IMG/VR virus record: IMGVR_UViG_2778261105_000011
DNA length: 41,989 bases
DNA from: a virus
Lineage: Duplodnaviria; Heunggongvirae; Uroviricota; Caudoviricetes
Reading direction: 5' to 3' (one strand)
Below, one piece after another: positions 16,828 through 37,086 of the stretch. The translations under genes were made by a program, and so were the position numbers. Position 1 is the first letter of the stretch, and each line of letters begins with the position of its first letter. The notes under the pieces are model-generated. The model worked only from the letters and a program-made list of their open reading frames with translations, did not search any database and was not told the DNA's origin.

Positions 16828-17012
16828 ACGCCACAATTCAAACGATACCAGAGCTTCTTATCCAGACACGAGGCAATCAGACCGAAGTGGCGAGGATACT
16901 TTCCTGCGCAAGAGGAACAGTGCTCAAGTACAACCGAGACAGCAAAGGCGAGCGTCACGTAATAGTTAACGGCGTCCTGATGGTCAAACAGGGCAAGAGG
17001 GGAAGACGATGA
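16824..17012 (+). CDS. ninH: NinH
   Basis: ...TIPELLIQTRGNQTEVARILSCARGTVLKY... parallels lambda NinH ...TIPDMLVEAYGNQTEVARRLKCSRGTVRKY... Confidence 0.75.
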   Translation: MNATIQTIPELLIQTRGNQTEVARILSCARGTVLKYNRDSKGERHVIVNGVLMVKQGKRGRR

Positions 17013-17632
17013 GACTCGAAAGCGTAGCTAAATTTCATTCGCCAAAAAGCCCGATGATGAGCGACTCACCACGGGCCACGGCTTCTGACTCTCTTTCCGG
17101 TACTGATGTGATGGCTGCTATGGGGATGGCGCAATCACAAGCCGGATTCGGAATGGCTGCATTCTGCGGTAAGCATGAACTCAGCCAGAACGACAAACAA
17201 AAGGCTATCAACTATCTGATGCAATTTGCACACAAGGTATCGGGGAAATACCGTGGTGTGGCAAAGCTTGAAGGAAATACTAAGGCAAAGGTACTGCAAG
17301 TTCTCGCAACATTCGCTTATGCGGATTATTGCCGTAGTGCCGCAACGCCGGGTGCAAGATGCAGAGATTGTCACGGTACAGGCCGTGCGGTTGATATAGC
17401 AAAAACAGAGCAGTGGGGGAGAGTTGTTGAGAAAGAATGCGGAAGATGCAAAGGTGTCGGCTATTCAAGGATGCCAGCAAGCGCCGCATATCGCGCTGTA
17501 ACGATGCTAATCCCAAACCTTACTCAACCCACCTGGTCACGCACTGTTAAGCCGCTGTATGACGCTCTGGTGGTGCAATGCCACAAAGAAGAGTCAATCG
17601 CAGACAACATTTTGAATGCGGTCACACGTTAG
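17009..17632 (+). CDS. Q: Q late-gene antiterminator (lambda Q)
   Basis: 207 aa translation is essentially identical to remembered lambda Q. Confidence 0.95.
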   Translation: MRLESVAKFHSPKSPMMSDSPRATASDSLSGTDVMAAMGMAQSQAGFGMAAFCGKHELSQNDKQKAINYLMQFAHKVSGKYRGVAKLEGNTKAKVLQVLATFAYADYCRSAATPGARCRDCHGTGRAVDIAKTEQWGRVVEKECGRCKGVGYSRMPASAAYRAVTMLIPNLTQPTWSRTVKPLYDALVVQCHKEESIADNILNAVTR

Positions 17633-17672: not shown

Positions 17673-17702
17673 TATTGACTTTTTGAATAAAGTTGGGTAA
17701 AT
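17673..17702 (+). promoter_or_regulatory. pR' late promoter with adjacent qut site (TTGACT ... TAAATT)
   Basis: Sequence TTGACTTTTTGAATAAAGTTGGGTAAATTTGAC is nearly identical to the lambda pR' region. Confidence 0.8.
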
Positions 17703-17845
17703 TTGACCAAACGATGGGTTAATTCGCTCGTTGTGGTAGTGAGATGAAAAGAGGCGGCGCTTACTACCGATTCCGCCTAGTTGGTCACTTCGACGCATCG
17801 TCTGGAACTCCAACCATCGCAGGCTGAGAGGTCTGTAAAATGCAA

Positions 17846-17902
17846 TCCCGAAACAGTTCGCAGGTAATAGTTAGAGCCTGCATAACGGTTTCGGGATTTT
17901 TT
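17846..17902 (+). terminator. tR' terminator (end of the 6S late leader RNA)
   Basis: Long hairpin TCCCGAAAC ... GTTTCGGGA followed by TTTTTT, as in lambda tR'. Confidence 0.8.
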
Positions 17903-18176
17903 ATATCTGTGTAACAGGTAAGAGCATTCTCCCTTATGGGGCTTGGCTTAAATGCACCGAGTGCTCTTATCGTTGTGGCAGCACAACGATAGTTTTCGTC
18001 AGAGTTGGCGACTTTGCGGTTTTTTAGAAACTGACCACAAAGATAAATGCAAACGATGATGTTGTTCTGATGGCGGCGTAATAGCCTGTAAGTCAGCAAG
18101 GTCTTCCGACTCCTTGTAAACAAATTCGGCGCACTGGCCCGGTGTGATTAATAATGGGCACACAACAGGTAAGAGC

Positions 18177-18230
18177 ATTGCGCGCCTGACGAGTCCATGA
18201 GGGACGAAACGCATTAGCGTCGCGCGGAGT
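18177..18230 (+). ncRNA. Candidate type I hammerhead ribozyme (self-cleaving RNA) in the late transcript leader
   Basis: Core CUGACGA (18186-18192), stem II GUCC/GGAC with 5 nt loop (18193-18205), GAA (18206-18208), stem III ACGC/GCGU with AUUA loop (18209-18220), C17 at 18221, and stem I 18181-18185 paired with 18222-18226 (CGCGC/GCGCG). Predicted cleavage after 18221. Confidence 0.7.
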
Positions 18231-18692
18231 ATCCCCAGCCGGGGAATAACTGGATACCAGGGGAGACAACCCTAAGCGCATTTACGAATGTGTTTAGGGC
18301 GTGGGTCGGCAATGACTCCCTGTGCAGCCGACATCTGGCCCGGCAACATACAGTGCTCTTTCCGTTGTGCTGAATTAAGCGAATACCGGAAGCAGAACCG
18401 GATCACCAAATGCGTACAGGCGTCATCGCCGCCCAGCAACAGCACAACCCAAACTGAGCCGTAGCCACTGACTATCCTGAATTCATCAGTGATAGTTATG
18501 CTGCGGCCTTCTACACATGACCTTCGTGAAAGCGGGTGGCAAGAGGTTGCACTAACAACCTCATGCCGTTTTGCCCGTGCATATCGGTCACGAACAAATC
18601 TGATTACTAAACACAGTAGCCTGGATTTGTTCTATCAGTAATCGACCTTATTCCTAATTAAATAGAGCAAATCCCCTTATTGGGGGTAAGAC

Positions 18693-37018: not shown

Positions 37019-37022
37019 AGTT

Positions 37023-37054
37023 GAAGCCCCAACTGCGGGAACAGTCAGGGCTTC
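37023..37054. terminator. arc-ant intergenic hairpin (GAAGCCC ... GGGCUUC), likely terminator for arc and for an antisense sar-like RNA
   Basis: Read directly; position corresponds to the bidirectional terminator of the P22 sar/arc region. Confidence 0.45.
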
Positions 37055-37086
37055 GGTATCAACAAATCGGATTAGGAAATATTGAC

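Follow-up and report, generated by a model that had tools for sequence, protein, structure and literature searches.

What occupies the space between two copies of a 16-bp sequence in the late leader of a lambdoid prophage, at a place where lambda has nothing comparable? The locus lies in a stretch of DNA of 41,989 nucleotides from a virus of the Caudoviricetes (IMG/VR record IMGVR_UViG_2778261105_000011), which we call the window; all coordinates are its own, and features lie on the plus strand unless stated otherwise. The 16-mer AACAGGTAAGAGCATT occurs exactly twice in it, at 17913-17928 and 18164-18179, with no further match even at 3 mismatches, and the 235 bp between the copies (17929-18163) have no lambda counterpart in an alignment, just as a first-pass annotation made from the letters alone had stated. 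That annotation took the duplicated flank for a target-site duplication or a recombination scar, and the insert for a small mobile or structured RNA associated with a ribozyme. The evidence basis of the whole analysis described here is computational, and it leads to another answer. The 3' part of the insert is a ~175-nt RNA (17988-18163), placed between two copies of a hairpin cassette that we call H. Its body has the architecture of the middle part of transfer-messenger RNA (tmRNA, SsrA), while its 5' arm appears to be directed against the tmRNA of the host.

The body is reached through a single-stranded linker, AAAGAUAAAU (18039-18048), which ends in a frame-setting context of the tmRNA type. 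In tmRNA the frame is set by U85 and especially by A86, that is, positions -5 and -4 (PMC2481249). Here, GAUAAAU is followed directly by GCA (18042-18051), and within the family U-5 is found in 38 of 39 versions and A-4 in all 39. What follows is a tag frame without a start codon, GCA AAC GAU GAU GUU GUU CUG AUG GCG GCG UAA, which reads ANDDVVLMAA and then a stop (18049-18081). The frame consists of 10 codons in every copy and the stop is always codon 11, for which TAA, TAG and TGA are all used. More than 15 variants of the tag peptide fit one pattern, e.g., ANEEMYLAVA, ANDEQFLAVA, ANDDLMLMAA, ANDNTFLAVA and the ANDDLMMVAA of P1. Synonymous variants occur at codons 1, 2, 7 and 10 (Ala10 is GCC, GCT or GCG, and Leu7 is CTG or TTG), the replacements are conservative, and the other frames are not conserved; phage Cba120 and locus L054 encode an identical tag peptide with 3 synonymous differences. 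The tag frame is under coding-type constraint and looks translated.

The stop codon lies in the loop of an analogue of tmRNA helix 5 (CUGA/UCAG plus GGC/GCC, 18067-18096). This element, helix 1 of the family model, is 95.8% paired, and a compensatory change from G-C to A-U is present in 12 sequences. Two pseudoknots stand downstream. Pseudoknot a (18097-18129) joins CAAGG to CCUUG (18097-18101 with 18112-18116) and CCGA to UCGG (18106-18109 with 18126-18129); these helices, 3 and 4, are 98.9% and 100% paired, and 7 of their 9 pairs show double changes; HK620 and P1 have versions of this pseudoknot. Pseudoknot b (18130-18159) joins CGCACU to GGUGUG (18130-18135 with 18141-18146) and GCCC to GGGC (18137-18140 with 18156-18159), forming helices 5 and 6 with a conserved AUUAAUAAU loop. 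Over the whole body (26 pairs, 6 helices), pairing reaches 93.2%, compared with 31-45% in controls with slid partners, and 14 pairs show double changes against 3-5 in those controls; none of 500 shuffles matches the observed values. The candidate for pseudoknot 1 (PK1) is weak: UUUGCGG/CCACAAA contains one mismatch, is lost in IME11, P1 and L070, and uses the same nucleotides as the antisense arm, and no consistent PK1-like fold of the 5' domain was found across the variants. The body is thus built as the middle part of tmRNA is, with the frame context, the tag, the stop in a helix loop and two pseudoknots.

The "structured" half of the first-pass suggestion is therefore well founded, with six covariation-supported helices including the two pseudoknots, and its doubts about the minus-strand open reading frames were justified: these are not genes, as there is no Pfam match, the PHROG matches are at noise level and no frame is open across 37 copies. 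No reading frame is open in all copies on either strand.

Upstream of the body stands the 5' arm (17988-18038), complementary to ssrA of E. coli K-12. Its first stretch, UAGUUUUCGUC at 17990-18000, is a perfect complement (11/11) of ssrA 96-106, i.e., of tag codons 3-6. GCGACU (18008-18013) faces ssrA 86-91 and spans the resume codon at G90, and UUUGCGGUUUUUU-A (18014-18026), in which lies the U-rich tract (18020-18025) already reported for the insert, faces the PK1 3' strand and the A run at ssrA 68-80. A weaker stretch at 18031-18036 corresponds to ssrA 57-62. Altogether, 43 pairs are predicted between 17988-18038 and ssrA 55-107, at -49.4 kcal/mol, an energy which we downgraded as the main statistic and replaced with an alignment-based test. 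Local alignment to the reverse complement of tmRNA gives the arm a score of 36, near-contiguous over ssrA 68-106, while the sense strand scores 13. The controls (n = 13,369) were 8,369 other sub-windows of the sequence, which scored 15.0 ± 2.1 with a maximum of 27, and 5,000 dinucleotide shuffles, whose maximum was also 27.

The same holds outside the window. All 49 distinct arms of the family match the same tmRNA segment, with a mean score of 28.2, and 24 of them lie above every control. The arms of Kolesnikvirus match ssrA 80-108 by means of different sub-segments of the same target, which argues for selection on the target, and not on one fixed sequence. Folding of the two full-length molecules together gives a ΔΔG of -15.3, in comparison to -4.7 ± 2.4 with the arm shuffled, and the heterodimer is still preferred. 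Perfect complementarity between the arm and the host tag extends over 8-11 nt in 37 of 39 versions, but over only 4-5 nt between the arm and the RNA's own tag, in 39 of 39. We also asked whether the arm is just left over from a tmRNA 5' region; the pairing of true regions of this kind with the target does not exceed background, so the complementarity is derived. In Enterobacterales (118 species, from genera hosting carrier phages) the host segment ssrA 55-107 is almost invariant, and a near-invariant target fits the host range of the carriers. Judged by these alignments, the complementarity of the arm to host tmRNA is beyond chance and kept in homologues.

How widespread is this RNA? The sequence 17988-18163 matches 758 of 50,697 phage records, 334 of which cover at least 80% of the RNA. 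The carriers comprise Jersey- and C1-like siphoviruses, N4-like Gamaleyavirus, Felix-O1-like and Kolesnik viruses, Vi1-like Ackermannviridae, the P22-like phage HK620, and P1; the RNA was also found in 137 of 5,426 E. coli genomes and in ~600 P1-type plasmids. The element recurs elsewhere with the same flanking sequence, a point that the first-pass annotation had left to a database search. Its copies are without exception either unannotated or covered by "hypothetical protein" calls, and they frequently stand within arrays of tRNA genes or behind a consensus sigma-70 promoter, TTGACA-17-TAGATT. In HK620 it occupies the same position in the leader between Q and S as in the window. The P1 copy (L156; NC_005856, 68,880-69,060) is full length, has the tag ANDDLMMVAA and is unannotated in the reference record; it is situated in the leader of the C1-controlled ban operon, between the annotated "dicF-like region" and tRNA-Asn/Thr. 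The RNA is one unit in a modular array of stem-closed cassettes, near phage tRNA genes or in the lambdoid late leader.

Several database records drew our attention during this search. The "hypothetical protein" coding sequences placed over the RNA in GenBank, e.g., in ZBSTP8, Bas77-81 and PJ16, are probably false gene calls. Over the Q-S flanks common to the window and lambda, "Campylobacter phage CJLB-4" shares 96.9% identity with lambda, and "Acinetobacter phage vB_AbaM_AB4P2" has a 90.8% copy of the enterobacterial element; the host assignments of both (records MW057783.1 and OR544125.1, respectively) look doubtful and may reflect contamination or mislabelling.

The likeness to tmRNA (SsrA; RF00023, clan CL00001, and RF04321 for the permuted form) can be listed point by point: U-5/A-4 before a GCA resume codon, a start-less 10-codon tag of the A-N-D/E-...-A-A type (that of E. 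coli is ANDENYALAA), a stop in the loop of the helix 5 analogue, H-type pseudoknots downstream, and a frequent position next to tRNA genes. The differences are just as clear, since the phage RNA is devoid of an acceptor stem with G3-U70, of a T-arm and of CCA, has two downstream pseudoknots instead of three (PK2-4) and no clear PK1, carries a 5' region antisense to tmRNA itself, and stays under every Rfam threshold. ARAGORN found no tRNA or tmRNA in the whole window, and no T-loop motif is present in 17900-18450. With default settings it called none of 45 family loci, whereas ordinary tmRNAs fished with the same motif, serving as positive controls, were called. The Rfam model tmRNA_permuted gave 26.3 bits for the window and 33.1 for L003 against a gathering score of 47, beta_tmRNA gave 17.2 against 84 and alpha_tmRNA 21.1 against 50, so all of these matches are below threshold, and they cover only the part with the tag, helix 5 and the pseudoknots. 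Rfam has no family for the body, for the H cassette or for the modules next to it. The arrays of C1 and MK54, which run from promoter to terminator, contain no T-arm at all.

Could the missing half come from the phage itself? One explanation is a self-sufficient split tmRNA, in which the tRNA-like partner would be the neighbouring module, H or another phage RNA, and the complementarity to the host would be incidental. In its favour, ARAGORN at a 90% threshold does call L024, L026 and L059, joining the 5' region to a downstream T-arm module; in Cba120, units resembling tRNA, with a T-arm and an encoded CCA, follow the RNA closely; some H loops contain T-arm hairpins, and U-CCA often follows H; and permuted two-piece tmRNAs exist in viral contigs. 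Nevertheless, most arrays, those of the window, C1 and MK54 included, lack a partner with a T-arm, a G3-U70 acceptor stem and CCA. The T-arm module of L024 has its own, better 5' strand, so that the call is probably an artefact of the repeated GUUGUGG, the H stem does not have the conserved G-U pair at the position needed, and the antisense arm is left unexplained. We therefore regard a self-sufficient split tmRNA as quite improbable.

The family was also rejected as a complete tmRNA: ARAGORN gives none by default, and the relaxed (90%) calls in L024, L026 and L059 rest on the neighbouring T-arm module, which has its own, better 5' strand; one of the L059 calls even puts the "5' domain" in the -10 region of a promoter. 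H itself does not fare better as a tRNA-like piece. As a permuted acceptor stem whose loop is an excised intervening segment, it would show G3-U70 if the 5' end lay 1 nt into the loop, but the loops have no initial NCCA, some copies have C-G instead of the G-U pair, and a T-arm ahead of the stem is lacking. H was considered as an ordinary tRNA-like unit as well: T-arms are present in some loops, and U-CCA comes after the 3' arm in arrays of the CCAGUUUUCG type, but these features are not general.

Other tRNA-like and tmRNA pieces were encountered near the family or among the sequences retrieved. L158 (Cba120) has a pair of tRNA-like units at ~1660-1900, directly downstream of the tmRNA-like RNA, each with a canonical T-arm and an encoded CCA end (...GAAGGUUCGAGUCCUUCCUCCAAUCCCA; ...UUGGGUUCGACUCCCUAAAACGGCUCCA); they have no normal anticodon arm and receive no ARAGORN call. 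The viral contigs L067, L123 and L143 contain permuted two-piece tmRNA genes with the tags ANDNFAPQELALAA, ANDNFAPQELAQAA and ANDNFAIEDFALAA, respectively. These genes include the 5' half of a tRNA-like domain (GGGGCUGAAAUAGGAUCGAC), L143 has the acceptor end ...CACCUCCACCA upstream, and ARAGORN misses all three in the excerpts used.

Among known systems, the two-piece permuted tmRNAs of alpha- and beta-proteobacteria, cyanobacteria and some phages also have the message part on a separate RNA held by base pairing. In contrast to the phage RNA, a single permuted gene gives rise to both of their parts, of which the coding one has a 5' acceptor strand, as seen in L143; the presumed partner of the phage RNA is a complete host tmRNA, and the pairing is at PK1 and the message, not at helix 2 or the acceptor. 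Among phages, the curators of tmRNA sequences record tmRNA genes for mycobacteriophages and Bacillus phage G alone, and describe no form consisting of the message part only (PMC4131195, PMC11915505). They add a form from mycobacteriophage DS6A, which consists of the tRNA-like domain only and, according to the passages that cite the original work, inhibits host tmRNA (Mao et al. 2009, as cited in PMC4131195, PMC11915505). DS6A thus resembles our case in that a phage-encoded partial tmRNA is thought to interfere with host trans-translation; it differs in representing the opposite half, without a tag frame, and in that titration of SmpB, not base pairing, was proposed. This tRNA-like-domain-only form is the nearest conceptual relative, from the opposite half of tmRNA. 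The family itself may be described as a tmRNA-derived RNA combined with a phage antisense RNA, which fails membership of the tmRNA family for want of a tRNA-like domain. A literature search returned no description of this RNA, the P1 genome paper not being among the texts covered.

What might such an RNA do? We tentatively propose, giving the idea somewhat less than an even chance, that it pairs with host tmRNA, covering the host template and supplying another in its place, so that the tag on rescued proteins is swapped. In this prophage, the RNA would be made as part of the Q-dependent late transcript from the late promoter pR', and it would be released from that transcript at the flanking hairpins, which are candidate RNase III sites, and by the hammerhead cut at 18221/18222. 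It would then anneal across the 3' half of host PK1, the resume codon and tag codons 1-6, the message region being single-stranded. The host resume codon and tag would become double-stranded and the host template would be masked, and the duplex would take the position of PK1, with the phage resume codon 10-12 nt further on; this matches the spacing of 11-12 nt from PK1 to the resume codon in tmRNA. Alanyl-tmRNA-SmpB could still rescue stalled ribosomes, with translation continuing on the phage template, and rescued proteins would receive AANDDVVLMAA (including the alanine from tmRNA) instead of AANDENYALAA. Such an altered tag might permit escape from ClpXP/SspB-dependent proteolysis, or its redirection. 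Tag swapping would account for the lack of a tRNA-like domain as well as for the coding-type conservation. The molecule implied by it, a natural chimeric host-phage tmRNA assembled in trans, present in P1, HK620 and hundreds more and borrowing the alanyl-tRNA-like domain and SmpB of the host, is possible, and we put it forward a shade more cautiously still.

The main rival is a pure inhibitor or sponge of tmRNA. Here, annealing, or cleavage of the duplex by RNase III, would shut down trans-translation in lytic growth, and the 3' part would be an untranslated decoy for S1, SmpB or RNase R, a body that stabilises the RNA, or a leftover of evolution. This explanation draws on the same antisense evidence, a duplex of ~40 bp is a classical RNase III target, and no unprecedented ribosomal step is needed. 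Synthetic antisense oligonucleotides directed to the region abolish tmRNA function. The classical anti-ssrA oligonucleotide covers ...GTAGTTTTCGTCGTTTGCGAC..., the tag-coding stretch matched by the phage arm. Oligonucleotides complementary to tmRNA inhibit trans-translation, and one aimed at wild-type tmRNA left an engineered tmRNA variant active alongside (PMC3384345, PMC7038980), a precedent for the tag-swapping reading too. These anti-ssrA reagents, used in cell-free translation and ribosome display, are like the phage RNA in being complementary to tmRNA and suppressing trans-translation (PMC3384345, PMC7038980), and unlike it in being man-made DNA without a replacement template. Phage partial tmRNA acting as an inhibitor of host tmRNA also has a precedent in DS6A (PMC4131195, PMC11915505). 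On the other hand, inhibition leaves unexplained a frame that looks translated (10 codons, three different stops at codon 11, synonymous and conservative changes), the maintained U-5 and A-4, the avoidance of complementarity between the arm and the RNA's own tag, and the compensatory upkeep of helix 5 and two pseudoknots. Overall, it seems to us rather unlikely that the RNA is an inhibitor only.

Several points weigh against tag swapping. To our knowledge, there is no case of a ribosome resuming on a template that is merely base-paired to tmRNA. PK1 would have to open, and a duplex of ~40 bp would suit RNase III well, so that tmRNA would sooner be destroyed than re-programmed. In the window, the RNA has no promoter of its own and sits behind the terminator tR'. 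Some family arms score only 20-23 in the alignment test. The duplex energy is a weak statistic, as unrelated 61-nt windows reach -41 to -43 kcal/mol in comparison to -51.5 for the arm; taken alone, it had looked overwhelming against shuffles before the whole 42-kb window was scanned. Since the target is invariant, compensatory co-variation between arm and target had nothing to track. Conservation of the arm may also have other causes: its GUUUUC part pairs with GAAAAC in the upstream hairpin of many arrays, so that in some of them conservation may partly reflect this pairing, and the arm resembles the D-loop motif AUAGGAUCGACAGAG of permuted tmRNAs.

The position of the RNA in the window raises the further question of whether it acts on its own transcript. 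The window is a lambdoid prophage with the gene order Roi, NinH, Q (17009-17632), pR', tR' and lambda-type S/R/Rz from 18693. The late promoter pR' (TTGACT-17-TAAATT, 17675-17703) was recognised by identity to the pR'/qut region of lambda and HK620, and the tR' hairpin with its U run (17844-17904), the end of the 6S-type short transcript, is identical to that of lambda. Since pR' is the sole promoter-like site upstream of the element in the window, the RNA of this prophage would be made only by Q-antiterminated read-through. A cis-acting leader, i.e., a set of processing or stability elements for late mRNA whose tmRNA likeness and antisense match have no function of their own, would suit this setting: the element is in the late leader, where RNase III sites of lambda have reportedly been mapped (Daniels et al. 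1988, PMID 2849240, as cited in PMC7547250), and the H cassettes and the hammerhead are plausible processing sites. Lambda, moreover, does without the body. Yet the RNA also stands outside mRNA leaders, behind its own consensus promoter and in tRNA arrays in virulent phages, and in P1 it lies in the ban leader; its sequence, structure and tag frame are kept across unrelated phage groups. A purely cis-acting role thus appears improbable.

The flanks of the RNA brought us back to the 16-bp repeat. Its partner strand, AGTGCTCTT(A/T)(T/C)CGTTGTG, is present twice as well (17960-17977 and 18352-18369; none of 100 shuffles gives two matches), and each 16-mer forms with its partner a long interrupted stem of 17 bp, CACAAC-A-GG-U-AAGAGCAUU / AGUGCUCUU-U-CC-GUUGUG, which is H. 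Copy 1 (17910-17977) includes the first 16-mer, 17913-17928, in its 5' strand UGUAAC-A-GG-U-AAGAGCAUU, has a loop of 31 nt (17929-17959) and the 3' strand AGUGCUCUU-A-UC-GUUGUG; its outer stem, UGUAAC/GUUGUG, is held by G-U pairs. It folds at -25.5 kcal/mol (z = -3.7), and its loop sequence is found also in Klebsiella phage MK54 and P1-type plasmids. Copy 2 (18161-18369) includes the second 16-mer, 18164-18179, in its 5' strand CACAAC-A-GG-U-AAGAGCAUU, and the 3' strand AGUGCUCUU-U-CC-GUUGUG (18352-18369) is separated from it by a loop of 172 nt (18180-18351). Across 37 distinct phage and prophage copies, pairing over the 17 pairs reaches 92.1%, in comparison to 41-58% with the partners slid, and 10 of the 17 have changes on both sides; none of 500 shuffles matches the observed values. 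The outer stem varies with the context (CACAAC/GUUGUG, CUAUC/GAUAG, GAAAAC/GUUUUC), and the loops are hypervariable, with ~39 unrelated sequence families of 26-172 nt, some carrying T-arm-like hairpins. H flanks the element in unrelated phages and occurs alone in lambda, as one copy, and in P1-type plasmids.

The duplicated flank is therefore the 5' arm of a covarying hairpin cassette, and neither a target-site duplication nor a simple recombination scar. A small mobile element, possibly ribozyme-associated and bounded by a 16-bp target-site duplication, could point to the exact repeat, to the single copy at the "empty" site of lambda and to the many genomic contexts. It is already contradicted, and we consider it very improbable: the repeat forms one side of a conserved hairpin that moves together with the element, its partner strand being duplicated too; elsewhere, the same cassette or a promoter flanks the element and not a varying duplication; the region after the second copy differs from lambda as well; and no transposase frame, terminal inverted repeats or integrase site is involved. 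Lambda is identical to the window on both sides of the insert apart from the 235 bp and the downstream loop, and in the same alignment its single hairpin (44,79x-44,87x in lambda) has a loop of 39 nt where the window has the 172-nt loop with the hammerhead. Alignment to lambda thus did delimit 235 unique bp, but the difference is not an insertion alone, as the downstream loop was replaced too. From tR' up to and including the second 16-mer, the prophage of O26:H11 strain 11368 has the same sequence as the window, and it then continues with a loop and module of the HK620 type, from which it follows that modules are exchanged at shared hairpin arms. Homologous recombination at these arms explains the exchanges better than mobility does, and the exchange is, as far as these comparisons of sequence indicate, one between mosaic phages and not transposition.

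Two further observations concern H loops. The same loop recurs in different phages and at different positions, like exchangeable cargo, and a common one (AAAGAACUGGCAAAGAGCUUAACGG...) reads like a helix-turn-helix coding fragment broken by a stop. As a stem, H can be compared with the RNase III processing hairpins of the T7 early region and the lambda late leader. It is likewise an interrupted stem of ~17 bp between RNA units, and its geometry, with one bulge and one mismatch, fits an RNase III site, cleavage being a prediction; hypervariable loops of 26-172 nt, able to carry a ribozyme or T-arm-like hairpins, are a feature of H that is not known from RNase III sites.

The perfect hairpin described earlier, ATCGTTGTG-GCAG-CACAACGAT, is present at the junction of copy 1 and the RNA, but with 10 bp (17968-17977 with 17982-17991) and not 9. 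This mini-hairpin, UAUCGUUGUG-GCAG-CACAACGAUA followed by UUUUCG (17968-17991), folds at -13.8 kcal/mol, and none of 200 shuffles folds as well. It is an "empty" GUUGUG...CACAAC module with a terminator-like look, whose GUUGUG is common with H copy 1, giving an alternative pairing; covarying versions exist in L070 (GCGA loop) and L139 (GAUGC/GCAUC).

A type I hammerhead, with its core read from the sequence, starts directly after the second 16-mer, as the first-pass annotation had it, and fills the beginning of the loop of H copy 2 (18180-18227). Stem I joins 18180-18185 to 18222-18227, the core CUGACGA is at 18186-18192, stem II at 18193-18205, GAAA at 18206-18209 and stem III at 18209-18220; with C17 at 18221, cleavage is predicted between 18221 and 18222. 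The canonical three-way junction, open at stem I, is the minimum-energy fold of the hammerhead, and Rfam Hammerhead_1 (RF00163) gives 24.7 bits, under the gathering score of 34. The proposed tie between the RNA and the ribozyme does not hold: the hammerhead sits in a hypervariable loop, just 2 of 5,426 complete E. coli genomes have the exact arrangement of the window including the hammerhead, and it accompanies the element in only 2 of the 137 E. coli genomes that carry the RNA.

Beyond copy 2 lies a module of the lambda type, closed by GUUGUGCUG/CAGCACAAC (18364-18448), which is identical to the lambda late leader and folds at -27.7 kcal/mol (z = -3.95). It belongs to the same class as the stem-closed modules found after H in other phages. 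The lambda late leader (L248, ~650-735) consists of one H hairpin and then the module closed by GUUGUGCUG/CAGCACAAC, and it can be read as an empty version of the scaffold that holds the cassette array in other phages, the tmRNA-like body being absent. In many phages (L004-L060 and others, e.g., L001 at 2735-2875 and L157 at 2265-2360), the modules after H are closed by GUUGUGGUG...CACCACAAC and contain a D-arm-like hairpin (AAUGCGCAGGCUGAUGCGC), a variable centre and a GCCGGAGAUCAGCACCGGC hairpin; they match no Rfam family, and candidate assignments of neighbouring modules to YrlA or another known family were rejected as sub-threshold noise. The modules of this type in L024 and L059 have a canonical T-arm (GGUUCGAUUCC). 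In L011, L021, L038, L039, L093, L132 and L134, the body is followed by a variant hairpin, CCCACCAAUGAGAGCAUU...AGUGCUCUC-UUUA-GUGGG, after which comes a conserved block, GUAACAACGGGCAUG...CCGUAAGCCACACGAAACGUGGC (L011, L021, L038 etc.).

CACAAC(A) stands at every module boundary, in the window (18161-18167 and 18440-18448) and in all arrays. CACAACA is the consensus target of the R1 seed of GcvB, and the motif is used by the prophage anti-small RNA AgvB (PMC4104026). The arrays could thus sponge GcvB, incidentally or deliberately; most of the CACAAC(A) copies are predicted to be base-paired. AgvB and AsxR of enterohaemorrhagic E. coli (EHEC) (PMC4104026) resemble the phage RNA in lying downstream of pR' in lambdoid prophages, in pairing with a host non-coding RNA and in their CACAACA motifs. 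They differ in being Hfq-dependent primary transcripts of 51-60 nt, with their own promoter and terminator and with GcvB and FnrS as targets (PMC4104026), whereas the phage RNA is ~175 nt long, highly structured and probably directed against tmRNA, and no sequence similarity exists between them. Identity with AgvB, suggested by the CACAACA motif, was rejected given the different size, the own promoter and terminator, and the different location.

Outside the late leader, a sar RNA is encoded on the minus strand at 37019-37085 (Rfam RF00262, 71.6 bits against a gathering score of 43). As sar is the antisense RNA of the immI (ant) region of P22, this lambda-like prophage also carries a P22-type second immunity region.

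What does the RNA mean for the phages that carry it? The tmRNA-SmpB system is nearly universal in bacteria, lambda-immP22 needs tmRNA, and so does Mu. No natural RNA targeting tmRNA was found in the literature search. If our interpretation is true, an overlooked RNA in well-studied phages blocks or re-programmes ribosome rescue during lytic growth, and the phages concerned include P1, HK620, the lambdoid prophages of EHEC O26, and the N4-, Felix-O1- and Vi1-like phages used in therapy and typing. Tag swapping, if confirmed, would be a categorically new mechanism, and it would open the questions of what is gained from a changed degradation tag, whether a ribosome can use a template tethered by base pairs only, and whether the late leader of lambda is the empty scaffold of such a system. 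The RNA may also provide a natural design for tmRNA inhibitors or for programmable tagging. The "hypothetical protein" annotations that cover it in many phage records should be corrected. Even on a conservative reading, this is a widespread, covariation-supported family of phage RNA which is not in Rfam.

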